Shown here: piece after piece, positions 5,946 through 28,025 of the stretch | Position numbering within the stretch: position 1 is the stretch's first letter | Layout: every line of letters starts with the position of its first letter | From: a virus | Strand: one strand, 5' to 3' | DNA: 31,633 nucleotides | Virus record (IMG/VR): IMGVR_UViG_3300019471_000061 | Location: 1-31,633 of that record | Notes under the pieces: generated by a model | Databases searched by the model: none | What the model was told of the DNA's origin: nothing | What the model saw: only the letters and a program-made list of their open reading frames with translations | Program-made: the position numbers and the translations under genes

Positions 5946-5994
5946 ATCCTACGTTAATAGTTTATTCACTGCCCTAATTTTTGTCAATAGCTAA

Positions 5995-7084: not shown

Positions 7085-7107
7085 TTTATTCTCCTTTCTT
7101 GGCGGCG

Positions 7108-7302: not shown

Positions 7303-7471
7303 TCTTTAGTATAGCAAACGTGTTACCAAACGTCAACACTTTTTGTGAAAAAAGTCAGAGATTTTTTGTTGAACCTGTGGAAAACTCACTTCCCGTAGAA
7401 TATGTAGCGATATTCTTTATAAAGTCTAATGATAATACGTTTTAACATAAGTTTAATTTTACCAAATGAAA

Positions 7472-8834: not shown

Positions 8835-8835
8835 T

Positions 8836-9198: not shown

Positions 9199-9214
9199 AA
9201 TTTTCCCCATAAAA

Positions 9215-9260
9215 AAACGACCACGTGAAGTGATCGCAATCTATTGACTTTATTATAACA
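9215..9260 (-). promoter_or_regulatory. Late promoter-hairpin element, copy 7 (TGTTATAAT-N11-hairpin-U7), upstream of the lysis cassette
   Basis: Minus strand reads tgTTATAATaaagtcaatagATTGCGATCACttcacGTGGTCGttttttt. Confidence 0.5.
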
Positions 9261-9356
9261 CAGACAACTTAAAAAATACGAACAAACATGCGAGATAAAG
9301 CACCCCAAAAACCCTCGCGTGCTTGCTCGCATTTCTACTTATATTTTATCATAAAA

Positions 9357-9375
9357 CAATCCTACCACAGAAACT
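9357..9375. repeat. Left 19-bp inverted repeat, CAATCCTACCACAGAAACT, at the head of cassette 2
   Basis: It is the exact reverse complement of 10077..10095. In frame it encodes ILPQKL. Confidence 0.85.
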
Positions 9376-9721
9376 GTCGTCAATTTCTAGAGGTGATTAT
9401 TCTACTGACGAGGTAGATACTGGTAAAAAATGGATAAATGGCAAGACTATTTATAGAAAGACTTTTGTGATGGGTGGACTTGGTGTAGCTACCACTGTCA
9501 AAAAACCGCACAACATCTCTAAATTGGATATAGTGATTAGGATTCAAGGTATCGCCAAAGAAAACTCAATTGGTGCGACGATTAACCTGCCACATGCTGC
9601 CGATCAACAACCATATACTGTCACTGTATATGCCGATAACACGAACGTGAATATTCAAACATACGCCGATCAGAGCGGATATGTTCAGTCTTATGTGACT
9701 TTGTGGTATACGAAAAAGTAG
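9357..9721 (+). CDS. Start-less alternative tail-fibre C-terminal cassette (cassette 2), carrying a KKWINGKTIYRK-type domain. It is inverted relative to the fibre gene
   Basis: There is no ATG or RBS. The ORF-track start is a TTG. It abuts the fibre gene stop-to-stop (TAGCTA). It shares the in-frame junction ILPQKL. Confidence 0.6.
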
Positions 9722-10666
9722 CTAAATCGTACCTACAGCGATCCAACTTATGCCGTGATTTGCACCACCGAAAATGCCTGAAGTAGAAGCCGTGATAGTG
9801 GTGCCTGTTTGACTAAACGATCCACACTCGATATTTGTGCCAGCGCCGATTTTCTGATCGAAACTTGCTGGAGATGTTGGCGTGTTTCGCGTATATCCGA
9901 TTAAAGTCGGAATGACTGCATATACTTCCTTGAATTTTTTAGGAAAATTAACCTGTACAGCTTGTTGTTTTCCGCCATTTCCATAAAATGACACCCAGCC
10001 CGATTGAATAACTAGCGAACCAGAGACAGCCTGTGCTGAGTTATTAGCGCTAAATGACAGCATATCAGTAGTCTTAAGTTTCTGTGGTAGGATTGAACCA
10101 TCTTTAATATTCTTTGATTCTATAGTACCATCTGAAATTAAATTAGCATTATTTATTCTGCCGTTTGGCAAGGTCGTCATTTTTCGCAAGTCGGTGATGT
10201 CATTACTGCTAATCGCTGTTGCTCCAGCGCGCTTTTTGACTCTAGCTAGTATAATAAATGGATTTGACGCACCAATCGCCGCCTGAATTGCGGAATTTGT
10301 TGGATCGGCTGGATTTGACGCTGCAGCTCCAGAGATAGCTTTTAACTTAAATACGTCATTAGTATTATCTGTTACAGATTGGTCCCCTGCTACATTTCTA
10401 TCGACATAAGCTACAATAACCGCATTTATAGGATTTGAAGGAGACGCTGCTCCGACATTAACCGTTTCTGTTCCGATAACATTTATATTGTAAGATGGAT
10501 CACGCCCAACAAGCGCAGTGCCTGCGTTGACTGTGACATTCATTCCACTTCCAGCCACTACATCTAATCCATCTGCCACTTCTCCGCTTAAAGCATCGCG
10601 TATAAGTTGTGTTAGTGCTGCAGGACTGTGCATTCCTCCGCCGTAATTGAAAACTCGCCTTGTCAT
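9722..10666 (-). CDS. Tail fibre or receptor-binding protein with an H-type-lectin-like C-terminal domain. The true ATG is at 10666, with RBS ggaaaggtag
   Basis: Gly/Ser/Thr/Asn-rich beta-type sequence. It is the last gene of the tail module. The C-terminus resembles the 6019 cassette. Confidence 0.7.
   Translation of the reverse strand: MTRRVFNYGGGMHSPAALTQLIRDALSGEVADGLDVVAGSGMNVTVNAGTALVGRDPSYNINVIGTETVNVGAASPSNPINAVIVAYVDRNVAGDQSVTDNTNDVFKLKAISGAAASNPADPTNSAIQAAIGASNPFIILARVKKRAGATAISSNDITDLRKMTTLPNGRINNANLISDGTIESKNIKDGSILPQKLKTTDMLSFSANNSAQAVSGSLVIQSGWVSFYGNGGKQQAVQVNFPKKFKEVYAVIPTLIGYTRNTPTSPASFDQKIGAGTNIECGSFSQTGTTITASTSGIFGGANHGISWIAVGTI
10077..10095. repeat. Right 19-bp inverted repeat, AGTTTCTGTGGTAGGATTG, inside the fibre gene
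   Basis: Reverse complement of 9357..9375. It sits at the boundary between the constant and variable parts of the fibre. Confidence 0.85.
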
Positions 10667-10705
10667 AATTCTACCTTTCCGCGCCGCCAGAAGGGCTGAA
10701 TAAGA

Positions 10706-10751
10706 AAAAATTGCCACCAAGCGGTCGCAATTTATTACTATAATTATATCA
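10706..10751 (-). promoter_or_regulatory. Late promoter-hairpin element, copy 1 (TGATATAAT...AATTGCGACCgcttGGTGGCAATT-UUUUUCUU), upstream of the fibre gene
   Basis: Reverse complement of 10700..10752. Confidence 0.5.
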
Positions 10752-11178
10752 CATTAAGTGAACCTCGACCCGTCGCTATGACGAAAAACTTAATCTTGAC
10801 CACTTCATTTCCAAAATATTCAACTCGCACTGTGAATTTCTGATTTTTTGGGTCTGAGACGAATTGACCGATAGTGTTTATCGATAGTTGAGCGTTTGGC
10901 GCGCCAACAATTTCGTATTTTGCGCGTACGGATAATCCAGCTACATTTTTATCTGAGTGAAATATCACGTTAAACTCTTTTCCTTGCAATCCATTCGGCA
11001 TCGTCGGTAGCTGTTGTGAGTAATCCCAATTAGAATTTGTCGATATTTTAAATACTTTAACGGCGTCAGCTCCGACAATTTGACGCTCTTTTTTTTCACG
11101 CTGACATCTCTCTAGTTGTTTTAATTCGTATAAAATGTCAGGTTCTGATTCAAGCCTATTTACTGCCACGGCGTCCAC
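10744..11178 (-). CDS. Baseplate or receptor-binding-associated protein, one of a paralogous trio
   Basis: N-terminal coiled coil followed by a beta-rich C-terminus. It shares S.NS.WD...PNG motifs with the 11160 and 11596 proteins. Confidence 0.45.
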   Translation of the reverse strand: MDAVAVNRLESEPDILYELKQLERCQREKKERQIVGADAVKVFKISTNSNWDYSQQLPTMPNGLQGKEFNVIFHSDKNVAGLSVRAKYEIVGAPNAQLSINTIGQFVSDPKNQKFTVRVEYFGNEVVKIKFFVIATGRGSLNVI

Positions 11179-11603
11179 TCCTCAAAACTAATATCGCACG
11201 CGTCATTAGCGATAATCTGAAACTTTAAGTTTATCGGCTGACCCATTGTGCCAAAAATTGGAACAAACCATTTCATCACGTTGTTTTGAGACGGCGACAG
11301 AGGTATTCCTATGACTGAATAAACTGCATTAAGCGCGCTTGATTGAATCGCTAGTCTGCCTACTAAATTTCCGCTATTTTTTGACCTAGCAGTAACTATA
11401 ACCACAGTCCAACCCTCGCCATTAGCGACCTGCCCTGGTCTGTTTGGAGCGACAGACATATCCCACTGAGAATTAGAAGCGGATAACTTCATTTTAATTT
11501 GATCACCGCCGATAATTTGACGCGTTTTTTCGTCGTTCATTTCTCTTTTAATACTGGCGATTTCGTCTATAATATCTCCAACGTTAATTCTGCTTCTACT
11601 CAT
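11160..11603 (-). CDS. Baseplate or receptor-binding-associated protein, paralog
   Basis: See 10744..11178. It starts MSR, like the 11596 protein. Confidence 0.45.
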   Translation of the reverse strand: MSRSRINVGDIIDEIASIKREMNDEKTRQIIGGDQIKMKLSASNSQWDMSVAPNRPGQVANGEGWTVVIVTARSKNSGNLVGRLAIQSSALNAVYSVIGIPLSPSQNNVMKWFVPIFGTMGQPINLKFQIIANDACDISFEEWTPWQ

Positions 11604-12171
11604 ACGAGACCACCGTGATTTTAGTTTTTCCGCGGTCAGTACTGCGCACTCGAAACCTCATTTTTAAGTATTCTCCAGAGCTACTGCCGACACCATAGTT
11701 GACGTTAGTTTCGTATTTATAAATTAACTTTTTTGCGCCGTAATCGGTCTTGTCTATCAAATATTCAGCGGATAAGATGCTCGTGAAGCTACTATCTCTA
11801 TTTGTGAATACCAGCCCTAAAGATGGCGAATAAAACGGCTCCCATCGCTGATTTCCTAGCATAATATCTAGAAATGGATAAACGACTGGCGAGTTTTGAT
11901 TGGCTGGCTCGAATATTGTTGTTATAGCCAGGAGTCTCATATTCAGCGGTCCGCCAGTGTTAGTTAATAGCACTTTGTCGGTCGTAGTTGACGAGCCTCT
12001 GCGCACGAATTCAAAAGTATCCCAGTTTTCGCTATTAGGCGATTGATATGTGCGAACACCAGACGTAACACTAGTCGGTTGTGATATTAGTTTTGAATCT
12101 GCGTGATTGGCTCTGATTCTAGATAGAACACCGACTATATTCTGCTCTTCTAATTCTGTCAATCTGCTCAT
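11596..12171 (-). CDS. Baseplate or receptor-binding-associated protein, paralog
   Basis: Shares the PNSENWD motif with its neighbours. Confidence 0.45.
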   Translation of the reverse strand: MSRLTELEEQNIVGVLSRIRANHADSKLISQPTSVTSGVRTYQSPNSENWDTFEFVRRGSSTTTDKVLLTNTGGPLNMRLLAITTIFEPANQNSPVVYPFLDIMLGNQRWEPFYSPSLGLVFTNRDSSFTSILSAEYLIDKTDYGAKKLIYKYETNVNYGVGSSSGEYLKMRFRVRSTDRGKTKITVVSYE

Positions 12172-12174
12172 ATT

Positions 12175-13251
12175 CTACTCTTGTTGCGCGATGATATTAT
12201 CTACACTTAAATTGTCGAACGTTAGCTTTACTTCTTCTGCGTCATTTTCGTCAACCGTTACCTCGATTTTTTCGATTCTGTAAAATCCGTGAATGTGCTC
12301 AAACATAATGTAGCCATTCATTTCAGCGTAAATCGTATCACCTAAACCAACGTCATTTAAGTCTAGAATACCGTCAGACAGAGTAAAACTCGGTAGCTCG
12401 CGAACATCTTTCAACATCTCCAAAATACCGTTCGTATTTTCTTGAAGTGTCGATTCTCTCTCAACTGAGCTAAATGTAACGACTTTTTCGCGACGATATA
12501 ACGCTTGTCGTGAGAATGGATCTGTAGCTGTAGCCACAATAGCGTCGTCGCCATTTCCACTGCCAATTCCGATGACATAATTAGCTAGACTATCCACCGA
12601 GCGCTCAAAACCAAATCCCGCAACGTTCTTGGGATAAACTAGTCTAATGTCTGGTCGATAATTACCCATCGCGTCAAAAGTATTGAACTTTTTGTCGGGC
12701 GTGAACTGAAAATCTGGTCCATCTATAACGTTACTCAGTCTCGTTAAAAAATCCTTCACATTAGCTCTGGTCTGATTACGCTGTCGAGGATTTTTTCCTA
12801 AAGACGTAAATTCACCGCGACGTATGCCAAAATCTCCGTCTTGTTTGTTTTGATACTGATTAATGACGCCCCACATAATATCTCCTTGGCGGACATTATT
12901 GTAGGCCGCGTCAACATACGCGTCTTTGAAGTAATTGAGATAACCAGTAAAACTCAATTCAATGTCTACTGAGGGGTCGTTTGGTGAAAAATCGATTTTA
13001 ATAAGGTGTGCGCCAATTCTGTCCTTGCCATTTCTCACAATTCGTATATCTGTCGTACCTGCGTCCATAAAATCATACGGTCGCATTCCTGTTTTTTTGA
13101 CATATTCTTCATATCTCGCTAAATCCATTCGAAAACTGACAGTTTCAGCGGCGTTTCTCTGCTCTGTCCACTTCAAACCTTGAGCCAGATGACGAATATC
13201 GCCCAGGCATTTTCCATTTTTGCTGTAAACCTCAATTTTGTAATCTGCCAT
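12175..13251 (-). CDS. Tail-associated lysin or baseplate hub N-terminal domain (Tal-like)
   Basis: Position after Dit and size of 358 aa are typical of siphovirus Tal. Confidence 0.55.
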   Translation of the reverse strand: MADYKIEVYSKNGKCLGDIRHLAQGLKWTEQRNAAETVSFRMDLARYEEYVKKTGMRPYDFMDAGTTDIRIVRNGKDRIGAHLIKIDFSPNDPSVDIELSFTGYLNYFKDAYVDAAYNNVRQGDIMWGVINQYQNKQDGDFGIRRGEFTSLGKNPRQRNQTRANVKDFLTRLSNVIDGPDFQFTPDKKFNTFDAMGNYRPDIRLVYPKNVAGFGFERSVDSLANYVIGIGSGNGDDAIVATATDPFSRQALYRREKVVTFSSVERESTLQENTNGILEMLKDVRELPSFTLSDGILDLNDVGLGDTIYAEMNGYIMFEHIHGFYRIEKIEVTVDENDAEEVKLTFDNLSVDNIIAQQE

Positions 13252-13253
13252 TG

Positions 13254-14093
13254 CTAAATACCTATGAATCCACTTCTAAATCTCAGTTCCGCCTCAGTTC
13301 GCTCGTCTTGAATATCTGTCTGTAGTTCAATTCGATTATCTCCAGCGATTAGTCCCCAAAAATTCGATCCAGCCGTCTGTAAATCGTAAATGTTCATTCC
13401 GTCGAGCAGTATCGTCTTATTTTTCATATCAATCTCCAATTTGTCACCATCTTTAACCACCGCAGTAATTTCCATCGATTGGTTTGTCGTTCGGTTGATG
13501 ATTTTCGGGTTGGTAGCTTTTGTACTGATGATAATATTCGGCAATATCATTTCGTTACCTGAATTATTCACGGTTGCTGGCTGCTCGTCTGGACTGATAT
13601 AGAGCGGAAGTTCGAACGGTATGACAAATCCACCTTGTCGAGTTTTTCGTATTGTTGCTAGAAGTTCTCCGTCGCTGTTGTCGTATAGCAGCGGATCATC
13701 GGCTTTTAAGTTTATTTTCCACTCAACCAAATTCAACACTTTATTAATCGGCATATCAACGCCGATCAGCACTACCTCTGTTGAATAGACGTGTCCCGCT
13801 GGAGTAATAATACGAAGAGTGCCTTTGTTTCTGACTATCTTAGCCAAAATAGTCGAAAATTCTCGTCGCCTATCCTCGACTTCCGCCACTGTTCTACCAA
13901 AAATTCGTCCACTGAACGAGATAAAACGAGGTTCATACAATTGTTTTGTGGTCCAGCCGCCATTTGCTCCTAAATTCGTACCTTGAGATGTTCGAATTGC
14001 GGGTAGCCCTGCTAATCCTTCAATCGGCTCGTCTAAGTGCATACCGATTAACTGGTCATTTATCTGAAAATCGTTCAAAAATACTTGCCACAT
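13254..14093 (-). CDS. Distal tail protein (Dit)
   Basis: 279 aa. It lies immediately downstream of the tape measure gene. Confidence 0.55.
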   Translation of the reverse strand: MWQVFLNDFQINDQLIGMHLDEPIEGLAGLPAIRTSQGTNLGANGGWTTKQLYEPRFISFSGRIFGRTVAEVEDRRREFSTILAKIVRNKGTLRIITPAGHVYSTEVVLIGVDMPINKVLNLVEWKINLKADDPLLYDNSDGELLATIRKTRQGGFVIPFELPLYISPDEQPATVNNSGNEMILPNIIISTKATNPKIINRTTNQSMEITAVVKDGDKLEIDMKNKTILLDGMNIYDLQTAGSNFWGLIAGDNRIELQTDIQDERTEAELRFRSGFIGI

Positions 14094-14102
14094 TTTATCC
14101 TC

Positions 14103-16046
14103 CTACGCCTGGCTTAATAAATACCCCAAATCACTCGCTACCATTTGAGCATCGACCTTGTCGCGAACATTATACGTGTTATTAACTACGATGTGCTTCG
14201 TCAATCCTCCAACATCGCCATTCGTTCGCTTATTAATTTGAGCGACTAAGCTTGCCATTTTACTTTCTGGAACAACCCACTCATTCTGTCCGCCATCACC
14301 AGCATAAATTATCGATCCACCGTTTGTTGGCGGCACAATACCACCTGTAGCGAGTCGAGGAATATGTAGTTGTGAGATATTGCCTATGTGTACACCTGGA
14401 ATCTTATTTATCAAGCCGATAGCGCCGTTAATCGTATTGATAAATCCGTTCGCCATTCGCTCAACCATGCCAAGCGCACCATTTACAGCACCTTTAACCG
14501 CTCCACCTACTGAATTGCCGACGAAACTACCTATTTTTCCGAACATTCCAGCAACAGTATTCCAAACGCCGCCGAAAAATCCAGGCATTCTGCCAAACAC
14601 TCCAACAATAGCGTTCCAGGCTCCCTGAAATACGCCGCTAAACCAACCTGCTGCACCGCCAAACACTCCAACAATGCCGTTCCAAAGACCTCCAAACCAT
14701 TGACCTATTGAAGTAATAGTCGACGATAGAACGCCCACAAATCCATTCCATATGTCCTGACCGACTTGCGTTTGCGTGAAGAACCAAACTAGCCCAGCTG
14801 TAACCGCAGCTAGAGCTACAGCTACTATCGCTAGCGGATTAGCGTTTAGTGCTGCATTAAATAACCATTGAACGCCAGTCGCCACTTGTGTAGCCACTGT
14901 CCAAGCCTTAGAGGCCGCACTAGCTAGAGACACGGCTGTATTGTAGGTAATTACCGCGCCAGCAAATATTCCGACAGCCACAGCTATCACAGTAAACACA
15001 GTGCTGTTGTCTTTTACGAAATTTATCAATCCAGCAATCGAACCAAGCATCTTCTCAATTCCAGAACCAAAGCCACTCACTGCCCCCGTTATGTTTCCAC
15101 CACCAATAGCGCCAATAATCTTACTCACACCACGAACAACAGCTGTTTTCATATTTTCTATAGAGGTCTGAATTCCGCCAGTGGAATTTTTGGCTTGGTC
15201 TTTGAAGTTTTGGAATCCGTCAACACCTTCAGTATTCAATTTTGTGATCGTGTCCATGAATTCGTCCATTGACACAATTCCAGTTCGCATTGACGTGCCG
15301 AGCGCCGTCGTCATATCGCCAGTACCGTTCTTAACAGCCTCTAATTGCTCGACAAGCTCTTTTCCTGTCGAAGACATCGGATTGTTGTTTGCGTATTCAC
15401 GAGCTTTTGCTAAGTACTTGTCGATAGCTGCGCCATTTTGGAAGAATGCTTTTGAAATTTGCTTTAATTGAGCTGGCATAGCGCTCTGTAATGAGCGCCA
15501 TTCGATCATGTCAGGTCTACCTTTAGCGTATGCTTGCGAAATCTGCTCAATTGCCGTAGCCTGAATATCCATCGGTGCGCCACCCGCTAGAATAGCGTTA
15601 TTAAGCGCTAAGAACATGTCCGTAGATTTGCCAACATCGCCATTTTTTGAGGTTAATCGCTGTACAGACATTGCCGCACTGTCTAGTGATGTAGGTAATC
15701 CCTTCAGCTCGTCAGACATTCGAGCAATTGCCTTTTTCGAGGCGTCAGCGGAAATTCCAAGGTTGCTCATTACCTTAGGAAAATTGTTCAAAATGTCCAC
15801 ACGACGAATAGCTCCATCAACAGAGCTATTAATCATATCAAAAGACTTATGAATTCCAGCCGAAATTAAATTACCAGCCGCGACCGAAACCGCACCACTA
15901 ATTCCACTAAAAGCATTTTTCGTCTTATCACTAGAACTACTCGATTTGTTCGTAAAGTTATCAACAGCAAGACCGGCTTTTGATAAAGCCGAGACTAATT
16001 GTGAGCTATTTCCTTTAATTACTAGTGTTAATTCGTTGCTTGCCAT
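14103..16046 (-). CDS. Tail tape measure protein
   Basis: 647 aa. Internal Gly-rich tandem repeats of the form GxWNxIVGVFG, and long Ala/Gly-rich hydrophobic tracts. Confidence 0.8.
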   Translation of the reverse strand: MASNELTLVIKGNSSQLVSALSKAGLAVDNFTNKSSSSSDKTKNAFSGISGAVSVAAGNLISAGIHKSFDMINSSVDGAIRRVDILNNFPKVMSNLGISADASKKAIARMSDELKGLPTSLDSAAMSVQRLTSKNGDVGKSTDMFLALNNAILAGGAPMDIQATAIEQISQAYAKGRPDMIEWRSLQSAMPAQLKQISKAFFQNGAAIDKYLAKAREYANNNPMSSTGKELVEQLEAVKNGTGDMTTALGTSMRTGIVSMDEFMDTITKLNTEGVDGFQNFKDQAKNSTGGIQTSIENMKTAVVRGVSKIIGAIGGGNITGAVSGFGSGIEKMLGSIAGLINFVKDNSTVFTVIAVAVGIFAGAVITYNTAVSLASAASKAWTVATQVATGVQWLFNAALNANPLAIVAVALAAVTAGLVWFFTQTQVGQDIWNGFVGVLSSTITSIGQWFGGLWNGIVGVFGGAAGWFSGVFQGAWNAIVGVFGRMPGFFGGVWNTVAGMFGKIGSFVGNSVGGAVKGAVNGALGMVERMANGFINTINGAIGLINKIPGVHIGNISQLHIPRLATGGIVPPTNGGSIIYAGDGGQNEWVVPESKMASLVAQINKRTNGDVGGLTKHIVVNNTYNVRDKVDAQMVASDLGYLLSQA

Positions 16047-16048
16047 TG

Positions 16049-16542: not shown

Positions 16543-16587
16543 TGAAGTAACCTCCTTGTATTAAAGCGATCGTTTTGTGGCAAAAGA

Positions 16588-16632
16588 AAAATTGCGACAC
16601 AAGATCGCAATTTATTACTTGTATTATACCAA
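16588..16632 (-). promoter_or_regulatory. Late promoter-hairpin element, copy 2 (TGGTATAAT-N10-AAUUGCGAucuugugUCGCAAUU-UUUCUUUUG)
   Basis: 8-bp perfect stem. It overlaps, back to back, the plus-strand promoter of the nuclease gene. Confidence 0.5.
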
Positions 16633-16653
16633 ATTAACTCTATAATTCATAAT

Positions 16654-17667
16654 ATGAAGTCTACAATATCGCCAATTGATAAAAAGAATGTTAATTTTGA
16701 GTTGGAAGAATTATTTCCTGCTTGGTTTTACATTATAGCTATTATATTTTTCATATGTCGGCTACCGAGCGGTCTTATGGATGCTATATCGAGCACTTTT
16801 ATGATTTCGAGCGTTTTACTACTAGGAAATGTCGCTTTTAAGTGGAAAAAGCTGAATAATACTTCTCGTATTGTGGCTTTGTGTGTAGTTTTTTGTGCTT
16901 TTTGTGTTGGCGGTGCGCTATCGAATAACAATCACGTGGCTGAACAGCAAAAATCCAATACTCAAACAACTCAGCCAGAGCAAGCTCAAAAACAACCAGA
17001 AAAACAGCCAGAAGCTCCAAAATTTAATCCAGCATTAGCTCAAGACGCAAATTTTCAGCAAGGCGAAAAAGACACTGTAACAGAGGTAATAGATGGTGAT
17101 ACGATTCGCACGTCGAACCACGCCAAAATCCGTCTAGTAGGGCTTGATACACCTGAAACTAAGCACCCGCGCAAGCCCGTCCAGTGTTTTGGCAGAGAAG
17201 CTTCTCAAAAAATGAATGATTTAGTCGCTGGTAAAACGGTTTATTTAGTTGCAGATCCTACTCAAAGCAGCAAAGACAAATATGGACGAGATTTATTCTA
17301 TATTTATCTAGAAGACGGCACGAACGTAGCTTATACGATGATTCGCGAAGGCTACGGTCATGAATACACGTATAATTCTAATCCTCACAAATGGCAAGCG
17401 CAGTTCCAAGAAGCTCAGAGAATAGCTATACAAGAAAATAAGGGCTTGTGGGCGGCAAATACGTGTGGCGGCAACACCGAAAAGCCAGCAGATCAACAAG
17501 CGCAACCTGCTCCAGCTCAAAATCAGTCTGCTGATGGTGTAACATTTAGCAGTTGTCGAGAAGCTCGCGCTGCTGGATATAGCAATATGCGTCGTGGCGA
17601 ACCTGGATATTCGCCAGATTTAGACAGAGATGGCGACGGAGTTGCTTGCGAAAGTCGTAGAAGATAG
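16654..17667 (+). CDS. Membrane-anchored extracellular thermonuclease: N-terminal TM helices, an SNase domain and a C-terminal Excalibur Ca-binding domain
   Basis: VIDGDTIR...IRLVGLDTPE SNase signature. C-terminal DLDRDGDGVACE Excalibur motif. Plus-strand promoter TTGTAT-N16-TATAAT, with the ATG 7 nt after the -10, so the mRNA is leaderless. Confidence 0.8.
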   Translation: MKSTISPIDKKNVNFELEELFPAWFYIIAIIFFICRLPSGLMDAISSTFMISSVLLLGNVAFKWKKLNNTSRIVALCVVFCAFCVGGALSNNNHVAEQQKSNTQTTQPEQAQKQPEKQPEAPKFNPALAQDANFQQGEKDTVTEVIDGDTIRTSNHAKIRLVGLDTPETKHPRKPVQCFGREASQKMNDLVAGKTVYLVADPTQSSKDKYGRDLFYIYLEDGTNVAYTMIREGYGHEYTYNSNPHKWQAQFQEAQRIAIQENKGLWAANTCGGNTEKPADQQAQPAPAQNQSADGVTFSSCREARAAGYSNMRRGEPGYSPDLDRDGDGVACESRRR

Positions 17668-17668
17668 A

Positions 17669-17700
17669 AAAAGCCCGCGTATTGCGGGCTCTTCTTTATA
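17669..17700. terminator. Bidirectional intrinsic terminator, AGCCCGCgtattGCGGGCT
   Basis: T-rich tracts on both sides. It ends both the nuclease gene and the major-tail transcription unit. Confidence 0.6.
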
Positions 17701-17707
17701 TTTGAGA

Positions 17708-18700: not shown

Positions 18701-18749
18701 TTGCTTTCTCCTTTTATTATTTACCTAGGTAAACAAAAGCGTGCTCAAA

Positions 18750-18797
18750 GAAAAATTGCGATCTTCGAGACCGCAATTTGTTAATTTAATTATACCA
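18750..18797 (-). promoter_or_regulatory. Late promoter-hairpin element, copy 3 (TGGTATAAT...AAUUGCGGUCucgaaGAUCGCAAUU-UUUCUUUG)
   Basis: 10-bp stem with one G-U pair. Confidence 0.5.
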
Positions 18798-18799
18798 CA

Positions 18800-19309: not shown

Positions 19310-19321
19310 TGCCTTCTCCTT

Positions 19322-19732: not shown

Positions 19733-19734
19733 AG

Positions 19735-20436: not shown

Positions 20437-20507
20437 CGCAACTCCCTTTATTTTCTTAGTATTCAGACTAAGGCGGACGATAAACTCCTCCGCCTCAAGA
20501 CTAACGA

Positions 20508-21368: not shown

Positions 21369-21382
21369 CTCATCTTCCTTTC

Positions 21383-21745
21383 TTAGCTCAAGCGAACGCC
21401 TACAGTTTTGTTATCAATTACTTCAACAATCTGTCCGATTGCAGGAGCGGTAGCGCTAACAGTTGTCGTAACCTTGTCAGGTGTAGCAACAGCAACAGCT
21501 TTACCTAAGTCAGCAGCTGCTACTGAGTCGATTGCCAATTGGAACACGCCTGTTCGATAAACGCGCACCTCATTCTTAACTAAGCTACTAGTACCTTCCA
21601 TTGCAACACCTAGAAATGGTTTTGCTCCTGCTTCTGCTGCTTTAGCATTGCCTGCAGCGTCAACAGTAACTAATTGTCCGCGATTGATCACATTGGTGCC
21701 AAATGGTGCTGAGATCAAATCGCCGTCTTGTCGTAGAAAAGTCAT
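21383..21745 (-). CDS. Small head structural or decoration-like protein
   Basis: 120 aa, Ala/Val/Gly-rich. It sits between the scaffold and capsid genes. Confidence 0.4.
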   Translation of the reverse strand: MTFLRQDGDLISAPFGTNVINRGQLVTVDAAGNAKAAEAGAKPFLGVAMEGTSSLVKNEVRVYRTGVFQLAIDSVAAADLGKAVAVATPDKVTTTVSATAPAIGQIVEVIDNKTVGVRLS

Positions 21746-22896
21746 TATTGATTCTCCTTCTTTACTTCTTTATAATCTTCTTCGTTCAAGCCATAGCGCT
21801 CGATGGTTTTCTTGTCCTCGTCGCCAAGCTCGACTTCTTCGCCGCCACCGTTGTCATCGCTTTCAGCTCCTTTTTCGTCAGTCAAATTCAGCGATGGACT
21901 TGACTCGATAAACTCGCTTAATAACGTATCAACAGTCTTGGTTTCATCATCAGATAGGTGGATTTCTTGGCTAGCTACTTCGCTCAATGCCATAAATGCC
22001 TCTTTCTGAGCTGGCACCACCTTGCCATCACTCAGCAACTTATCAAACTTAGCCTCAGCCGCTTTTTTCGCTAGAGCAGCTTCTTTTTCTGCAATTGCTG
22101 CTTCACGATCAGCCAAAGCTTTTTCTCGATCAGCAAATTCATTCTCATTTTCTTTTTCGTCTTTTTTCTCTTCCGATTCTTCTGTTTCAGGTGTCTCAGC
22201 GTCAGCAATTTGCTGCTTTACAGCCTCTGCTTGGTCTTCTGGTACTTCAATTTCAGCACCAGCGGCGACGGTTGCGGTCTTCTCTTCGCCGTCTTCCTGC
22301 CACTTCACCTCGACGTCAAATTCGCGGTCGTTCTTAACTTTTACCTTCATAGTCTCTTCCTCCTTTTCGTAATCTTGACTATCGCTAAACAATATTGCTG
22401 GCGTTTCGTCAGCAAGCGGCATAAACTGCTGCATTCCTTTTATGTAAGGATCGACAACTAGACCGATGTGTTTCAACAGTGGACCAACGCGCTGTCCAGT
22501 TCTTTTATCGAGATAATTGTCTTCAAAGCCCATTGAAACGTCAGGAATATTGTGATTTTCGATATTTTTGGCAGTTTCTTCGTCACGGATTTCAATGACC
22601 GCGTCAATTCCTTCGTCTGTAAGCTCCATATCTACCATTTCACCCTTGTTTAGTGCTGCCAGTTCGGCCGCGCTTTTTGGATGTCCCAATGGAACAGCCA
22701 CAACACCATATTTTCCGCTATCGAAATTTTCTTTAAGACGTTTACCGAAAATCTTGTCCAAAATCATCTTTCGTGATGAGTTGTTAGGGTCAACATATTC
22801 GCCAAATCGACAAATCTGCTTTTTGAACCTCTTAAAACTACTACTAGTGTTATCTGCTAGCTCAACATTTACATCTCGATTGATAAATACATACAT
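21745..22896 (-). CDS. Prohead protease / scaffold fusion (Mu I-like). The true start is MYVFINRD, with a GGAG RBS
   Basis: The N-terminal globular region is followed by a long acidic coiled-coil tail (EKEAALAKKAAEAKFDKL). The ORF-track 5' extension begins at a TTG, upstream of the RBS. Confidence 0.5.
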   Translation of the reverse strand: MYVFINRDVNVELADNTSSSFKRFKKQICRFGEYVDPNNSSRKMILDKIFGKRLKENFDSGKYGVVAVPLGHPKSAAELAALNKGEMVDMELTDEGIDAVIEIRDEETAKNIENHNIPDVSMGFEDNYLDKRTGQRVGPLLKHIGLVVDPYIKGMQQFMPLADETPAILFSDSQDYEKEEETMKVKVKNDREFDVEVKWQEDGEEKTATVAAGAEIEVPEDQAEAVKQQIADAETPETEESEEKKDEKENENEFADREKALADREAAIAEKEAALAKKAAEAKFDKLLSDGKVVPAQKEAFMALSEVASQEIHLSDDETKTVDTLLSEFIESSPSLNLTDEKGAESDDNGGGEEVELGDEDKKTIERYGLNEEDYKEVKKENQ

Positions 22897-23035
22897 ACTT
22901 TTTCTCCTGTCTGAACCGCGATCGTATGTAAGAAAAGTGTGAGTTCTACAAATATCAACCTGTAACAGTGTCAAAAATGTTTGTGTTGCAAAAGTCTAGT
23001 GGTTACTTTGGCGGGTGAAGCCTTGATCTTCAAAA

Positions 23036-23083
23036 GAAAATTGCGATCACATACGATCGCAATTCATTAACGCTATTATATCA
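23036..23083 (-). promoter_or_regulatory. Late promoter-hairpin element, copy 4 (TGATATAAT-N10-AAUUGCGAUCguauguGAUCGCAAUU-UUUCUUUUG)
   Basis: 10-bp perfect stem. Confidence 0.5.
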
Positions 23084-23147
23084 TAAAGAATAAATTAGCA
23101 ACAACTATTTATTGACTTTTTATAGTGGTCGTGGTAATATTTATGTA

Positions 23148-23194
23148 GAAGTAGGTAGCGCCACCCGTATTGGATGGGAAAGCGGACCTACTTC
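23148..23194. repeat. Hairpin GAAGTAGGT-N28-ACCTACTTC overlapping the portal gene stop, with a T-tract on the plus strand
   Basis: Seen directly. It is oriented as a plus-strand terminator, facing into the end of the portal gene. Confidence 0.35.
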
Positions 23195-25833
23195 TTTTTT
23201 ATAACGACAAACTTATTACCCTTAAAAACAACTAGATTGTCGATGACGGCATTATTTTTAGGTATCGAAATATGACGCTTTGCGCTAGCCGCAGCCTCCT
23301 CGAGAGATATATTTTTAGATGTAATATCTATGAATATGTTGCGCTTCGCCTTGTCTGTAGCCTTAAATATCGCATTTGGTATTGTCATAGGTCTTAAACT
23401 ATCAACAATAATACTTTTCAATTCGTATTGAGTGTCGTTAGATATAAAATCGTTCGACGGCTTGTCTTTTAGGTTCGGCAAGCGCTTTAATTTTAGTTGA
23501 TCTTTCCATCTATTATAAAATTCTATTTCGGCAGGCGTCATATATTCTGCGCTTCGTGGATCTAGTCGAGCCGCCTCAATTGCTGCCTTCTTACTAACGC
23601 CATCAGGCAAACCGATAACCGCTTTACTCTGGAATTGAGCAGTCTCTATGCGTTTCATTGTTTTTTCATCAATCCCAGTTATTTTTGGCAACTTATATTC
23701 CTTATTTAACGCCGATATTCTCGTCCAGATACACCTACAGTTGATATGCTTTGGCGGTCGCTGAAACATCGTTTTACGCTCATTAGCAGATATTACTTTG
23801 CCGTCTAACTCTGCGCAAATTGGACAAGTGTTTTTTTCCATCAGTGCCGACCACTGATAAACCGCGGTGTCGTCATCTTCGTCAAATGAAGCGAAACTGT
23901 CATCGCGTCCGTCGTTCATACCTTGAGAGATAATAGTACCTTTCGTCCCAAGTACGGCCTGTGCCACCCACGCACCAGCCGATATTTTAATAGCTTCTAG
24001 CACAGCGCTTTTTTGAGCCGTACTTTGATAGGCTGGTGTAGTTGGTTCGATTTCTTCTGTATCTTCGTCAGGCTCATCAGCGAGATTGATTGGCTGCTTC
24101 AATAGTTCTCCAGCAATGATATTATTCACATCTTCATTCTGCATATCGACAATGAAGTCTACGTACTGTTTTTCGTGTAGCTTGCGTTCTTCTTTTAAGG
24201 CTGGTGCTGGCAATTTTTGCTCATCCGCCGCAGATAATTTTCCGTAATTGTAAGCCGTGCGGTAATACTTTGCGATTAATGACTTATAGCTGTCTGGCAG
24301 TGAGAACACTTCATCAAGTGAAACACCGTCAATTGCCTTATTCAACTCTTCAGTGGCTGCTGCGGCGAAACTATCCTCCTGCGCCTTCATCCAATCCTGA
24401 ATAGCGTCGAACTTGACTCGTTTTTCGGCGTCTGTTAAATCTCGATTGATTGTAACGTGTTCGTGAGGTTCAGGAGGAGCGACTTCGCTAATCTTGTCAT
24501 TTTCGTCTAGAAATTTGTCGGCGTTGCCGCCATTGCCTCCGTCTTTGTCATTGTCGCTGTCATCATCGTCTACTTTTTCGTCTTTCGGTTCTTCTTGACG
24601 ACGTTTTTTAATCGCGTCTAGGTCAATTCCTAAACGAGTCGCTGTCGATTCCTCGATTCCAGTAGCGATGTCATCTGATATTCTGTCTTTTTGAACGAGT
24701 AATTTGAATGCCTCAAACACTGCCGAAATAATAGATTCGTCAGGTGTGTCAAAGTGGAATTCTGGATAGTGTCGCTCCGCAAAGTTCAAGTCGATAAGAT
24801 CAGCGATGAGATATTGATTAATATGAGATTCAAGCAGTCGCATAACACCAGTAATTGCGGTCTGTAGCAAGTCTTTCTGATTAGTACTTAGGCTATATGA
24901 GCCTACGTTGCTTGCGGAACCTTGAGTCGCCGTTAGAATAACGCTAGCGTGGAATGCTCGCGCCATTTCTGAGTTCTGTCGCTCGATCGATTGATGCGGA
25001 TCGCGCCCCTCGGTGTTGAGCACGTCCAATTCGTAACCGTACGGAATAGACGCTACAGAGTTGTGTTTTCCTAATCTGCCAAGCACCTCCAGTGCTTTAT
25101 TTCGCGCTTTCTTCAATTGCTCAGACACCACGCCGTCGACTGTTCGCTTCAGAACTTTCGGCTTAATGGCATCAGCCTGCAAAGCCACGCTGTCCAAATA
25201 TTCGAGACGACGCTTCTTGTCATATCGAGGATATAGCGACTTAAACGCACTACGACCGTAAAGATAATTTCGGCTTTTTCCGTAAGTAAACAAAAAGCAT
25301 TTATAAGCTGGGATTGTCACTTCTTGAGCGGCTCCGTCGATATCTGTTGTTCGTTGCTCAGCCCCGCCAAATCCACCAACTTCATCTCTGATTAACGTTA
25401 GTGTAGTACTGTCGCGGTGAGCAAGTCTCTTCAACACGAGCTTGCCGTCTCTTAATTCATAGACTTTTTCGAATAAAGCGAATCCTTCATAAATTGCGAT
25501 GAGCGATTGGTCAATAAACAGATTCATCGGTGTTTGCATGCCACCCTTGTGTGGCGGCTCTAGGAGATTTCGGCGAACAAACTCAGCTTGTGCTTCGTCT
25601 ACATCTTCGCTATCAGCGTCAATATGATATGTCGCCGCTAAAATACTCATAGTAAAGATGTTATATAGAGCTTCAACTGTCGTGTCACTGTCGAGCATCC
25701 TTCGATAATCTTTAATACTGATTTCATCAGTACGAGATTCTTCTCTGTCAAAGCTCTCAAAAACAATATCTCCAGCAAAGCCAATTTCGCTAGTCAGGTT
25801 TTTTGGTGTTTCGTCTTTCTTGAATAGTGCCAC
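23188..25833 (-). CDS. Portal protein fused to a MuF-like minor head protein, with an extra C-terminal module of about 185 aa
   Basis: 881 aa. Acidic linker DDDDSDNDKDGGNGG. MuF/SPP1 gp7 signature CPICAELDGKV...PPKHINCRCIW about 185 aa before the C-terminus. Confidence 0.7.
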   Translation of the reverse strand: MALFKKDETPKNLTSEIGFAGDIVFESFDREESRTDEISIKDYRRMLDSDTTVEALYNIFTMSILAATYHIDADSEDVDEAQAEFVRRNLLEPPHKGGMQTPMNLFIDQSLIAIYEGFALFEKVYELRDGKLVLKRLAHRDSTTLTLIRDEVGGFGGAEQRTTDIDGAAQEVTIPAYKCFLFTYGKSRNYLYGRSAFKSLYPRYDKKRRLEYLDSVALQADAIKPKVLKRTVDGVVSEQLKKARNKALEVLGRLGKHNSVASIPYGYELDVLNTEGRDPHQSIERQNSEMARAFHASVILTATQGSASNVGSYSLSTNQKDLLQTAITGVMRLLESHINQYLIADLIDLNFAERHYPEFHFDTPDESIISAVFEAFKLLVQKDRISDDIATGIEESTATRLGIDLDAIKKRRQEEPKDEKVDDDDSDNDKDGGNGGNADKFLDENDKISEVAPPEPHEHVTINRDLTDAEKRVKFDAIQDWMKAQEDSFAAAATEELNKAIDGVSLDEVFSLPDSYKSLIAKYYRTAYNYGKLSAADEQKLPAPALKEERKLHEKQYVDFIVDMQNEDVNNIIAGELLKQPINLADEPDEDTEEIEPTTPAYQSTAQKSAVLEAIKISAGAWVAQAVLGTKGTIISQGMNDGRDDSFASFDEDDDTAVYQWSALMEKNTCPICAELDGKVISANERKTMFQRPPKHINCRCIWTRISALNKEYKLPKITGIDEKTMKRIETAQFQSKAVIGLPDGVSKKAAIEAARLDPRSAEYMTPAEIEFYNRWKDQLKLKRLPNLKDKPSNDFISNDTQYELKSIIVDSLRPMTIPNAIFKATDKAKRNIFIDITSKNISLEEAAASAKRHISIPKNNAVIDNLVVFKGNKFVVIKKK

Positions 25834-25875
25834 TCTTTCGCTCCTCGAAATAAAGCAGTTACTTCACCAAAAAGA

Positions 25876-25919
25876 AAAATGCGGCCAAGCAACCGCAATT
25901 TATAACTTAGATTATATCA
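25876..25919 (-). promoter_or_regulatory. Late promoter-hairpin element, copy 5 (TGATATAAT...UGCGGuugcuuggCCGCA-UUUUUCUUUUUG)
   Basis: It overlaps the 3' end of terL. Confidence 0.45.
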
Positions 25920-27450
25920 CGAAATCCGATTCTGACCAATCATCATCTTTTGACGCGTACGAGCCACTTTCGTCAAATCCTTCTTCACCTTGATTTAACC
26001 CATCGACGAGCAACATTCGAATCGCATATACAATCGCGTCAACCATGTCGTCGTGTGTTCCTTTTGGAAATTCTATTAGCTGTTCTCTTAAAGCTTGTCC
26101 GTTTTGGATATCTTTAACTAGGAACACTTTCCCAGCCTCAAAGAATCTGCTGACAGCTAATAGTCGTCGCACCTTGTCTTTGTCTGGTTTCAATCCAATG
26201 ACAGGTAATCCTGCCAATAGGTCGCGGAATACTAATCCTAGCGCGCCCTGCTCAATTCCGACAACTTGCGGTTGATATGTTTCGTAGAGATTTTTAATAG
26301 TCTCTGCTGTTATGCTTGGTGATGTTCGCTGATTTCGAATTGCTCTCACGTAAACGTTGCCGTCAGCTCCTAAGTCCGCGACAATCATAGCCGTCGGGTC
26401 GGCAGTCTGTCTTTCGCTCGCGGCAGGATCAACTGTCAGCACTCTAGCTTGACGAGAATATTCGTCTGGTGCTTGGCTCGGCTCGCACTCTTTAATCCAG
26501 TCGGGCTTGACTATCGCATCTTCTTCACTGAATGGCTTGTGCTGATATTCCTGTGCAAAAGCAATGCTTCCGACAAACTCTTGATCATTTGGATTGTCGC
26601 GCATAGATTTTAGCTTTTCGAGGCTGCGATGCTCTGGCCACAAAGCGTGTTCAGTGCCGTCCTCATCAGTTGTGATTGCGTAAAATACTCGTGTTTGCCA
26701 ACTTTTGAAAATATCTTGCTGTTTCATTACTTTATTGACGAGGCTGTCGAAATGAAGAATCGTGCCGATAACGACAGCTCGTCCACCTCTTGCCAGTGCT
26801 GGAATAGCTGCTTTAGTGAACCAATGATAAAGCTTCTGGCGTTGCTCAGCGCTCTTGATATTTTCGTCGTTCTCGATGTCGTCAAATATCATCAGCGTCG
26901 GACGGGTGTGCCTGTGTCGAATACCGCGGATTTTCATACCCGAACCCTTAGCGGCGTATTTAATGCCGTTGCTCAACACGAATTCGCCATCTTGCCAGTC
27001 GTCGCCCTTCATATTCCCGAATAACCATTTAATTTTCGGATTATTCTCGAACTCATCTTTAAGCGCATTGATGAACTCTGCAGCTTGAGTGTATGTGTCG
27101 CTGATTATCACTATGAATTCTTCTTGTTCAAAACAACCAGCCCACAGAGGGTATGTCATGTCTACTGTTGTCGACTTCGCGTGTCCACGTGGCGCAATAA
27201 CGCCTATGCGTCGATTATTCTTATCACTGATTAAGTCTAATATCTCTTTATGAAACGGTGGTGTTTCTAGTGGAAAATATGGTCGGGCGATGAACCAACC
27301 AAACAAATGAATGTTTTCGCGCCTCTTAAATATCGCTAATAGGTACTGTCGGAGCTTATCTCTATCCGTTTCCCAGTACTTTTCGCATAGTCGTACAATG
27401 TCTTTCCTGGTCAGATTATTCAAAGATTGCTGCTCGGAGTTCTTCGTCAT
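25912..27450 (-). CDS. terL: Terminase large subunit
   Basis: Walker A, VIAPRGHAKST. Walker B, LMIFDDIE. C-terminal RNaseH-like nuclease region (VLTVDPAAS...IVADLGADG). Confidence 0.9.
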   Translation of the reverse strand: MTKNSEQQSLNNLTRKDIVRLCEKYWETDRDKLRQYLLAIFKRRENIHLFGWFIARPYFPLETPPFHKEILDLISDKNNRRIGVIAPRGHAKSTTVDMTYPLWAGCFEQEEFIVIISDTYTQAAEFINALKDEFENNPKIKWLFGNMKGDDWQDGEFVLSNGIKYAAKGSGMKIRGIRHRHTRPTLMIFDDIENDENIKSAEQRQKLYHWFTKAAIPALARGGRAVVIGTILHFDSLVNKVMKQQDIFKSWQTRVFYAITTDEDGTEHALWPEHRSLEKLKSMRDNPNDQEFVGSIAFAQEYQHKPFSEEDAIVKPDWIKECEPSQAPDEYSRQARVLTVDPAASERQTADPTAMIVADLGADGNVYVRAIRNQRTSPSITAETIKNLYETYQPQVVGIEQGALGLVFRDLLAGLPVIGLKPDKDKVRRLLAVSRFFEAGKVFLVKDIQNGQALREQLIEFPKGTHDDMVDAIVYAIRMLLVDGLNQGEEGFDESGSYASKDDDWSESDFVI

Positions 27451-27889
27451 CGATATTACCCTCCTCTTTCGCTTTTTTCAGCTTCAAGTCGCGCTCATCT
27501 CGCCATCCACAAACATTTTTCATAGTAAAGATAGCAAAGCTTGCTGGAGCAGCACCACTCAAAGCCACATCGACTATAAACTCGCGTTGTAAATCTTTGG
27601 CGGTTTCATAGGCTTCCGCAAATTCTGGGTGAAGATCGCACCAATCCCTCAAAGTATTGCGATGTACGCCAATTTTTCGAGCGAACCCTTCAAGCCACGG
27701 CATTCTCTGAGGCATTCTTCTAGCTATAAGCTTATCTCCGTCAGCTGACGAGACGGTTTCGTCTTCTGTGATTTTCGTAGGGTCGATTGAAAAATAGTCA
27801 ATTAGTTGTTGACAATATTCTGGTTTGTACTTTGTTGGTTGCCCTCCTTTGTTAGGAGCGCGCTTTTTCACTGTTTTCTTAGTCGTCAT
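27416..27889 (-). CDS. terS: Terminase small subunit
   Basis: N-terminal basic tail, HTH-like segment GVHRNTLRDWCDLHPEFAEAYETAKDLQREF. It overlaps the terL start. Confidence 0.7.
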   Translation of the reverse strand: MTTKKTVKKRAPNKGGQPTKYKPEYCQQLIDYFSIDPTKITEDETVSSADGDKLIARRMPQRMPWLEGFARKIGVHRNTLRDWCDLHPEFAEAYETAKDLQREFIVDVALSGAAPASFAIFTMKNVCGWRDERDLKLKKAKEEGNIDDEELRAAIFE

Positions 27890-27904
27890 GATATTTCTCC
27901 AAAC

Positions 27905-27948
27905 AAAAAGCGGACCTTTCGATCCGCAATCCTATGGCTATTATAGCA
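27905..27948 (-). promoter_or_regulatory. Late promoter-hairpin element, copy 6 (TGCTATAAT...GCGGAUcgaaagGUCCGC-UUUUUGUUU), upstream of terS
   Basis: Reverse complement of 27901..27950. Confidence 0.45.
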
Positions 27949-28025
27949 TAAAAGAGGCGGCACATAATTCGCCACCGCCCCTTCAAACTTTTTAGGTGCA
28001 CACATATCATTGACGTTTGCGCCTA

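Follow-up and report, generated by a model that had tools for sequence, protein, structure and literature searches.

Our analysis of a complete phage genome (IMG/VR record IMGVR_UViG_3300019471_000061, positions 1 to 31,633; this whole stretch of 31,633 nucleotides (nt) is called the window in the following) revealed seven copies of a composite element in which an extended -10 promoter box, TGnTATAAT, is closely followed by a stem-loop and a T-tract. The anatomy of these elements, their conservation in related phages and the selection acting on them at the RNA level are established by the comparisons given below. The architecture is real, strongly conserved and unusual; control by promoter-proximal terminators is known in kind, the form found here is new, and its function is predicted from sequence. 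The reading that we favour, and to which we give about an even chance, is that the elements are host-recognised promoters gated by promoter-proximal terminators that would require read-through.

A first-pass annotation of the window had described seven minus-strand copies of TGnTATAAT followed by a hairpin and a U-tract. All of them were recovered where it had placed them, with the TG present in 7/7, and its assignment of the downstream genes to terS, portal-MuF, protease, major tail, G/TMP, fibre and lysis was borne out. Exact matches to TGNTATAAT number seven, all on the minus strand (at 27948, 25919, 23083, 18797, 16631, 10751 and 9260), while shuffled sequences contained 1.42 TGnTATAAT boxes on average and none of 100 shuffles reached seven. 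Variants with one mismatch were not enriched (31 found, 39 expected), and the seven boxes therefore form a discrete class. Every box is followed after 11 nt (9 nt at terS) by an invariant ATTGCG, the stem-loop and the T-tract, and position 7 or 8 past the box is an A in all seven copies. The hairpin regions fold with -9.5 to -14.1 kcal/mol (z -1.9 to -4.0), and the stems alone have 7-12 pairs, 3-5 of them G-C, with a free energy (dG) of -8.4 to -13.6. A T-tract with 5-7 T per 8 nt stands directly after the stem at 7/7 sites, and an independent terminator scan detected six of the seven elements, in agreement with the earlier statement that a canonical terminator, as predicted from sequence, lies right behind each box.

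Some details of the earlier description had to be corrected. Stem lengths had been given as 6 to 10 base pairs (bp) where we measured 7-12 bp, and G-U pairs, reported for two copies, occur in at least four. A single hairpin consensus had also been proposed; the constant left arm ATTGCG stands, whereas the full form AAUUGCGAUC/GAUCGCAAUU matches only three or four copies, the right arm being variable. This left arm is constant in all eight copies (the seven and a variant described below), even where it is mismatched (fibre) or faces a drifted right arm (holin), which hints at a possible sequence constraint beyond pairing. Two boxes overlap the end of the preceding gene: the terL stop codon TAA falls inside the TATAAT of the box before portal-MuF, and the stop codon of the upstream gene lies inside that of the fibre element, where the stem has one G-G mismatch and the left arm ATTGCG is retained. 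A covariance alignment of the seven copies had been suggested. It showed little covariation in RNAalifold, and the support for pairing came from relatives instead; because the core is invariant and MAFFT misregisters arms of unequal loop length, distance from the box served to index the pairs in place of a covariance model. At the Rfam gathering score the tRNA was the sole match in the window and no family was found for the element, while a permissive Rfam scan of the element before the G/TMP block gave chance-level matches only (E 0.31 and 0.86).

The variant eighth copy (4226..4293) lies outside the range covered by the first-pass annotation. It combines a classical -35/-10 promoter (TTGACA-17-TGCTAATAT) with a hairpin that starts after the same 11 nt and has no T-tract, is identical across window-type genomes, and reads in the direction of attP and of the tRNA-Thr gene. 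This early promoter (4293) and the late promoters thus share a 5' hairpin with one and the same left arm, the terminator tail being confined to the late ones. After integration the eighth copy would stand at the far end of the prophage, pointing into host DNA.

The window has a terminal overlap of 127 bp and thus represents a complete circular phage genome of ~31.5 kilobases (kb), with almost all genes on the minus strand. It encodes an integrase and a tRNA-Thr, an early exonuclease/RecT operon that crosses the window junction and reaches a VRR-NUC gene, a Mu-like head module (terS, terL, portal-MuF fusion, protease, major head protein), tail genes and a holin-endolysin cassette. A near-identity DNA search of deposited phages gave no match for the window, and its terminase is at most ~30% identical to those of deposited phages, so that no annotated relative was usable. 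Related contigs were found in IMG/VR (~100, many from human oral samples), and two GTDB matches carried the label Candidatus Saccharibacteria. Integrated copies were identified within host contigs of 308 kb and 513 kb, adjoining a tRNA gene; an integrase-based lookup for host flanks had returned only non-integrated copies, and the flanks were obtained via homologues of two early proteins. Since it encodes an integrase and integrated copies occur at a host tRNA gene, we consider the phage temperate. The attachment site lies within the host tRNA gene (window 4001..4140, minus strand; L190:6731-6930; L196-L198). At the integrated junction the 5' half of the host tRNA is joined to phage DNA, behind which come the complete tRNA-Thr(GGT) of the phage and two tandem terminators; this shows that the phage brings a full replacement copy of the tRNA on integrating.

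The same seven gene junctions carry the element in the relatives, and each of 17 loci spanning the late region has exactly seven boxes at syntenic positions. When relatives were scanned for terminators first, 127 of 130 unique hairpin-plus-T variants had a perfect box 5-16 nt upstream; of the three imperfect boxes, two are complete but for the TG and the third differs at a single position. All four bases occur at the N of the box, while the eight specified positions are held. The hairpins are far more diverse. Across the seven site classes 40 distinct stems were found, every one of them paired, and four unrelated stems occupy the portal site in separate lineages. The sequences of the hairpins are completely unlike, both from site to site within a genome and, for a given site, from lineage to lineage (ACTCTCTG, TACGACGCG, TGCGACAA), and by arm sequence three hairpin lineages can be told apart (AATTGCG, TATATGCG/TATATACG and ACTCTCTG). 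Both partners have changed with pairing retained at 40/75 left-arm positions between lineages, a count that includes register shifts and whole-hairpin replacement and hence not independent events. Non-Watson-Crick pairs in the stems are of G.U type in 118 cases and of A.C type in 10, and the sense-strand fold is more stable than the antisense fold in 120 of 143 variants; because of these two biases we conclude that the hairpin is selected as coding-sense RNA and not as a DNA palindrome. A role as bidirectional insulator, which had been proposed earlier, is weak for the same reason, since G.U pairs destabilise the antisense hairpin in those 120 of 143 variants.

The element is retained in the more distant clade member L105. 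The holin-endolysin cassette (70-98% identity) also occurs in ~60 other phage contigs with unrelated tail genes, from which the element is absent; the holin is there preceded by TGCTAGAAT and a plain leader, or is translationally coupled to the preceding gene. As judged from these comparisons, the architecture is a property of this structural-module clade, not of the host or of the lysis genes. The lysis cassette itself (window 7836..9210, minus strand; L112-L189) encodes an Amidase_5 with a zoocin-type target-recognition domain and is a clear case of mosaic exchange of a module. The proposal that the element marks late units holds for the seven late and lysis junctions; it does not hold strictly, as the element also heads the early operon in some relatives. 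In L013:1170-1480 and L109:6325-6400 a helicase-type early module is led by the box (sometimes imperfect), a ACTCTCTG hairpin with T-tract and two more terminator-like hairpins. The same leader was found in a phage with an unrelated head module, so that this early element travels with its early module.

Several observations suggest that the boxes are used as promoters. The best -35 match upstream of the late boxes averages 2.57/6, against 2.53/6 at random positions, and is thus at background, while four non-late promoters (4293, 5987, 7336 and 3856) match TTGACA at 5-6/6 with 17 bp spacing. The earlier designation of the boxes as extended -10 promoters without a -35 agrees with these values, and we regard them as predicted promoters. 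Boxes of the same class also stand before host genes and tRNAs in ~20 kb of host sequence flanking integrated copies, none of them with a hairpin or T-tract. In the flanks L190:1-7100, L105:1-7000 and L109:1-6700 we noted TGnTAnAAT boxes with an ATG merely 8-9 nt downstream at L190:2303, L190:5414 and L105:647; this sample of ~20 kb suggests that the host may use extended -10 promoters and leaderless mRNAs. All seven boxes of the window sit on the coding strand ahead of gene blocks. Several sites show mosaic junctions exactly at the box: the sequences of relatives are unrelated above it and the same from there on. Homology begins at the box, which therefore travels with the downstream unit. 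From their sequence and setting the boxes look like ordinary strong host-type promoters. A function of the box as multi-frame stop signal was rejected because the N is variable and because, for several boxes, the nearest upstream gene end is far away.

The most direct alternative, that the hairpins simply end the upstream units, had been named by the first-pass annotation as the outcome that would overturn its proposal, and it is disfavoured by several lines of evidence: plain terminators, opposite-strand genes, homology that begins at the edge of the box, and tandem terminators. A plain terminator ending the early operon adjoins the terS box in every lineage, with at least four distinct hairpin sequences, and the order terminator-promoter-terminator is found at both terS and G/TMP. 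Ahead of the G/TMP box a strong plain terminator stands behind the major tail gene. The G/TMP and holin boxes have opposite-strand genes directly upstream. In ~20 relatives a box, a terminator, a second terminator, a Shine-Dalgarno sequence and the ATG of the major tail gene follow each other, and in another lineage three terminator-like hairpins come after the box that heads the early operon. The box-linked terminators (dG -8.4 to -13.6, 5-7 T in 8) equal in strength the plain terminators of the early operon and of the tRNA unit; plain terminators in these genomes carry no box, and their sequences are unrelated to the elements. Because terminators sit between box and gene, polymerase must read through at least one real-looking terminator for abundant structural proteins to be made. 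This evidence supports the view that box and hairpin/T-tract form one conserved unit belonging to the downstream gene block, and that the hairpin is a predicted sense-strand, RNA-level intrinsic terminator placed where box-started transcripts would begin. The T-tract as a translational enhancer only was rejected, since it adjoins the Shine-Dalgarno sequence at only 2/7 sites. Coordinates of the elements and of the features used for contrast are collected in the table.

Table. Promoter-terminator elements of the window and the promoters and terminators with which they were contrasted
Feature	Position in window	Strand	Components and context
Element 1, before terS	27900..27948	-	box TGCTATAAT 27948..27940; stem-loop 27927..27910; T-tract 27909..27900; then GGAG and ATG; site kept in relatives
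Element 2, before portal-MuF	25870..25919	-	box TGATATAAT 25919..25911; stem-loop 25897..25880; T-tract 25879..25870
Element 3, before head protease/scaffold gene	23028..23083	-	box 23083..23075; stem-loop 23065..23038; T-tract 23037..23028
Element 4, before major tail gene	18743..18797	-	box 18797..18789; stem-loop 18779..18753; T-tract 18752..18743
Element 5, before G/TMP block	16579..16631	-	box 16631..16623; stem-loop 16613..16589; T-tract 16588..16579
Element 6, before fibre gene	10700..10751	-	box 10751..10743; stem-loop 10733..10709; T-tract 10708..10700
Element 7, before holin-endolysin	9207..9260	-	box 9260..9252; stem-loop 9237..9217 (two G.U pairs); T-tract 9216..9207; then GGGG and ATG
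Variant eighth copy	4226..4293	-	-35 TTGACA 4293..4288; extended -10 TGCTAATAT 4273..4265; 11 nt; hairpin ATTGCGA-N14-TCGCAAT 4253..4226
Classical promoter, 124-aa basic protein	5959..5987	-	TTGACA-17-TAAACT
Classical promoter, unit of 142-aa and ribbon-helix-helix proteins	7308..7336	-	TTGACG-17-TGCTATACT
Classical promoter, early exonuclease/RecT operon	3828..3856	-	TTGACC-17-TAAATT
Plain intrinsic terminator ending the early operon	27956..27976	-	T-tract runs into the TG of element 1 (terminator-promoter-terminator)
Plain strong bidirectional terminator after major tail gene	17668..17694	-	no box; dG -17.3

In the gating reading, each element would unite an extended -10 promoter of the host sigma-A type with an intrinsic terminator in promoter-proximal position. 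Host RNA polymerase would start at the conserved A, 7-8 nt past the box, so that the transcript would begin 2-5 nt ahead of the hairpin, with the stem-loop at about +4 to +30 and the end of the U-tract at about +38. By default most transcripts would stop at the U-tract, and the structural and lysis genes would thereby be silent in the lysogen and during early infection despite promoters that look constitutive. Late expression after induction would require that termination be suppressed by a phage-induced factor. This might be a general polymerase modifier like gp39 of Thermus phage P23-45, which would spare extended -10 promoters and read through terminators, or a factor that acts on the 5' hairpin. 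The early operon and the tail unit would be bounded by plain terminators unrelated in sequence.

A number of points weigh against gating. We infer the starts and the termination at about +38, and efficient termination so near the start is assumed. If antitermination were processive from the first promoter, seven separate promoters would be redundant. Gating is not obligatory, since the same holin stands behind an extended -10-like box (TGCTAGAAT) and a plain leader in further temperate phages of this host. The remaining points concern the factor itself. Essentially all non-structural open reading frames (ORFs) were searched against Pfam, PHROGs and NCBIfam and, as a linker-joined concatenate, against PDB sequences, and no relatives of Q, RinA/ArpU, AlpA, sigma, gp39, p7, Gp2 or AsiA were found among them; nor was there a PDB-sequence match to gp39 or another solved polymerase-binding phage protein. 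Only VRR-NUC, YopX, RecT, exonuclease, integrase, SLT-like domain, KGG, NikA-like ribbon-helix-helix and H-type lectin domain were recognised. The first-pass annotation had seen no Q-, RinA- or ArpU-like gene, which the profile searches confirm, and had suggested that late and lysis expression would depend on an antiterminator or on another factor recognising the 5' hairpin; its proposed check of the early ORFs by hidden Markov model (HMM) searches against antiterminator families returned no match, and no antiterminator was identified in the three HMM libraries or in PDB sequences. The Q families are not mutually homologous, and an undescribed Q analogue may exist, as may a functional analogue of gp39.

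No early protein was found to co-vary with the architecture among the relatives, most lineages of which lack coverage between the lysis genes and the integrase. An acidic protein of 96 amino acids (aa) was rejected, since it always follows RecT and also occurs in phages without the element. A 59-aa early protein (window 755..934, minus strand), widespread in phages of this host, was likewise rejected as specific partner, its family being present in element-free phages too. AlphaFold2 predicts a beta-beta-alpha-beta fold for it (pLDDT 86), and Foldseek against PDB gave nothing significant, the best E being 0.06 (designed proteins); T7 Gp2 at E 0.38 was not counted as evidence. The candidates named earlier are not clade-wide: the KGG protein (30820..31050) is present in 2/22 relatives, the 97-aa protein (31050..31343) in 0/22 and the 124-aa basic protein (5489..5863) in window-type genomes and one other only. 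A 190-aa protein (28454..29026, minus strand, two genes before terS) and its junction-spanning paralogue were set aside as present in only 9/22 relatives. This paralogue is a protein of 202 aa, the C-terminus of which is the 92-aa ORF at the window end (junction 1..609 + 31343..31633); the two share 44% identity in the C-terminal half, and the family had no match in any library searched. Finally, a dedicated factor encoded in the early region fits awkwardly with early modules that are mosaic among the relatives and a late architecture that does not vary.

Control of this general kind has been described from other systems. In lambdoid phages an intrinsic terminator downstream of a host primary-sigma promoter holds back the late and lysis genes until termination is suppressed (PMC4914094). 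The first-pass annotation had been reminded of lambda pR'-tR' and Q, and the likeness holds for the layout, that is, a predicted constitutive late promoter with a downstream terminator in a temperate phage; it does not extend to the regulator, as no Q protein and no Q-binding element were found in the searches and alignments described here. Furthermore, there are seven promoter-terminator modules here and one in lambda, the terminator would lie ~4 nt past the start here and lies ~190 nt from the pR' start in lambda, and in the phage studied no Q homologue was found and the late promoters have no -35 and no conserved element between -35 and -10. The latter is where the Q-binding element lies, and a -10-like pause element pauses polymerase at 16-25 nt (PMC4914094). 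In the window, the sequence above the box is unconserved among the seven copies, and relatives diverge fully up to the box. A -10-like TAAATT, TAGATT or TAGGAT (4/6) occurs 9-14 nt past the box in most window copies and TATATG in other lineages, such hexamers being common in A+T-rich sequence.

In Pseudomonas aeruginosa, a terminator (tB) separates the alpB promoter from the first lysis gene and two terminators precede a second operon, and AlpA, a small factor that loads at the promoter through an element between -10 and -35, bypasses them (PMC7969949). The elements resemble this system in the intrinsic terminator or terminators between promoter and lysis operon, and differ from it in copy number, in the closeness of terminator to start, and in that no Phage_AlpA or related domain and no conserved element upstream of the box were found here. 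According to the parts of PMC3351154 drawn on here, gp39 of Thermus phage P23-45 (with gp76) spares extended -10 promoters and reads through terminators. [quoted passage not shown] However, promoter-proximal terminators are not described for P23-45 in those parts of the source, our searches found no gp39 relative, and host promoters apparently are also extended -10, so that such a factor would not shut off the host.

The main rival to gating, a serious one which we nevertheless hold to be somewhat improbable, is that the modules are unregulated and serve two purposes. A leaky terminator would 3'-cap the upstream RNAs while the same hairpin would act as 5' stabiliser of the box-started mRNA; the modules would insulate units and set stoichiometry, and late timing would come from replication-driven template amplification with no antiterminator. 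The leaders of E. coli ompA and phage T7 phi10 carry 5'-terminal stem-loops that stabilise the mRNA, and stabilisers of the ompA type require the stem near the 5' end. The fixed spacing from -10 to stem suits this requirement: the first paired base lies 9-13 nt past the box, that is, 2-5 nt from a start predicted at position 7-8. The copy at 4253, behind the early promoter 4293, has the same hairpin a few nt from the predicted transcript 5' end and no T-tract, which would make a 5' hairpin useful on its own, and the boxes that overlap upstream stop codons speak for compaction. The negative searches for an antiterminator and for a co-varying early gene favour this rival as well, and the mosaic early modules fit a self-contained cis logic. 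However, stabilisers need no U-tract, and here one follows the stem directly at all late sites in all lineages, even behind a plain terminator or where no same-strand gene end is near (terS, G/TMP, holin). Tuning alone hardly accounts for tandem terminators ahead of the major tail gene, whose product is needed in abundance; in strength the terminators do not fall below the plain ones at operon ends, and the perfect consensus promoters that the prophage has before holin-endolysin would be restrained by leakiness alone.

A valve that depends on context and needs no phage factor stands at lower odds and appears unlikely to us. Polymerases arriving from upstream would be released at the terminator, and those that had just started at the box ~35 nt away would pass it, being still in early elongation with sigma retained, a very short RNA and no NusA, so that the module would stop old transcripts and start new ones. 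To our knowledge there is no precedent for terminator resistance from closeness to a promoter alone, and the late genes would be left unrepressed in the lysogen. The strict coupling and spacing of box and hairpin, the seven independent modules, and the constant late architecture next to mosaic early modules with no identifiable factor would all be accommodated. Early elongation complexes of E. coli do retain sigma, with a special window at a nascent RNA of ~16-30 nt; by +38, however, the exit channel should be clear of sigma region 4, which is displaced at ~16 nt (PMC4914094), and the tandem arrangements place a second terminator further downstream. More broadly, we see a small chance that the elements are self-contained stop-restart valves without a dedicated antiterminator gene, or are relieved by a factor or RNA that recognises the emerging 5' arm ATTGCG.

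We consider it very unlikely that the element works at the DNA level as an operator, similar to a stoperator or roadblock, whose inverted repeat past the -10 would be bound at every late promoter by a dimeric repressor or activator that blocks polymerase or helps it. The stoperators of Cluster A mycobacteriophages are asymmetric 13-bp protein-binding DNA sites that are thought to stop transcription in the lysogen, and they resemble the elements in being many copies of a short, oriented, intergenic element in a temperate phage. Two features would suit such a roadblock: the position at about +3 to +30, and the left arm ATTGCG, which is the same in all seven late copies and the early one (4253), including those in which it is mismatched or faces a drifted right arm. 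Yet the elements are RNA hairpins of variable sequence with G.U pairs, each joined to a promoter box; the bias of 118 G.U-type against 10 A.C-type pairs is strand-specific and leaves no DNA-level palindrome, the hairpins are unlike between sites and lineages (ACTCTCTG, TACGACGCG, TGCGACAA), the adjacent T-tract would have no role, and no DNA-binding protein was recognised in the profile searches of non-structural ORFs. Least credible of all is that the boxes are not promoters and the elements only end upstream units, with TGnTATAAT kept as stop-codon context or as a sigma-dependent pause aiding termination: two boxes do overlap upstream stop codons and every element stands at the 3' end of one block as well as at the 5' end of the next, but eight specified positions are conserved with a free N in 127/130 variants, the box also occurs where a plain terminator or a gene of the opposite strand lies upstream, relatives are homologous from the box onward, host genes and tRNAs carry the same class of box at promoter distance, and plain terminators of the same genomes are without it.

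Further loci in the window and its relatives deserve mention. The early exonuclease/RecT operon is preceded by a structured, multi-branched RNA leader (window 3689..3830, minus strand; dG -60.4, z -3.4), the closing helix of which overlaps with its 5' strand the -10 of the promoter at 3856. Ten distinct homologues of this leader share 87-100% identity, above that of the neighbouring proteins, and RNAalifold gave 49 pairs, 6 of them changed on both sides. Rfam returned no match for it at E <= 1, and the leader may be a cis-regulatory RNA. A 337-aa nuclease gene (16641..17667, plus strand) is inserted on the opposite strand between the major tail gene and the G/TMP block. Its ATG follows 7 nt behind a TATAAT, as in starts of the leaderless type, and this hexamer and the element 5 box stand back to back. 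The gene ends at the bidirectional terminator 17668..17694; the insertion is missing from some relatives. Two other opposite-strand genes, 6019..6381 (plus strand; H-type lectin or gp53-like C-terminal domain protein) and 9323..9721 (plus strand; a 132-aa protein between fibre and holin), are conserved in other phages of this host. A small unit at 6394..7336 (minus strand), with its own strong promoter TTGACG-17-TGCTATACT and a strong terminator at its end, comprises a short ORF of very basic composition and the genes of an acidic 142-aa protein and of a ribbon-helix-helix protein resembling NikA/Arc. Relatives have Arc-like and SocA-type genes at this position, and the unit may be an accessory immunity or toxin-antitoxin region. 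In L105, a distant integrated relative, precomputed gene calls show a portal-MuF fusion with an ADP-ribosyltransferase toxin domain (PF03496; L105:19409-20288), while the portal-MuF protein of the window (881 aa) has only portal and MuF domains.

If gating is the true function, this clade would control its whole late programme, including lysis, after initiation and not at initiation, by seven copies of a ~50-bp module that joins a consensus host promoter to a terminator starting almost at +1. Since the phage has no recognisable regulator of a known family, a mode of termination suppression still to be discovered would be implied, and this would be the first inferred regulatory logic for phages of Saccharibacteria. 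If instead the modules serve two purposes without regulation, they would be a compact case in which a single hairpin closes one mRNA at its 3' end and opens the following one at its 5' end, and if they act as valves or through recognition of ATTGCG, they would represent a new coupling of initiation and termination in phages whose hosts belong to a lineage of ultra-small bacteria, where transcription has received very little study. Genetic tools for Saccharibacteria are a recent arrival. The modules are short and sharply defined and hence directly testable, and they could serve as bait for the factor. Extended -10 promoters and leaderless starts in the host, as its flanking sequences suggest, would be an aid to annotation and engineering in this lineage.

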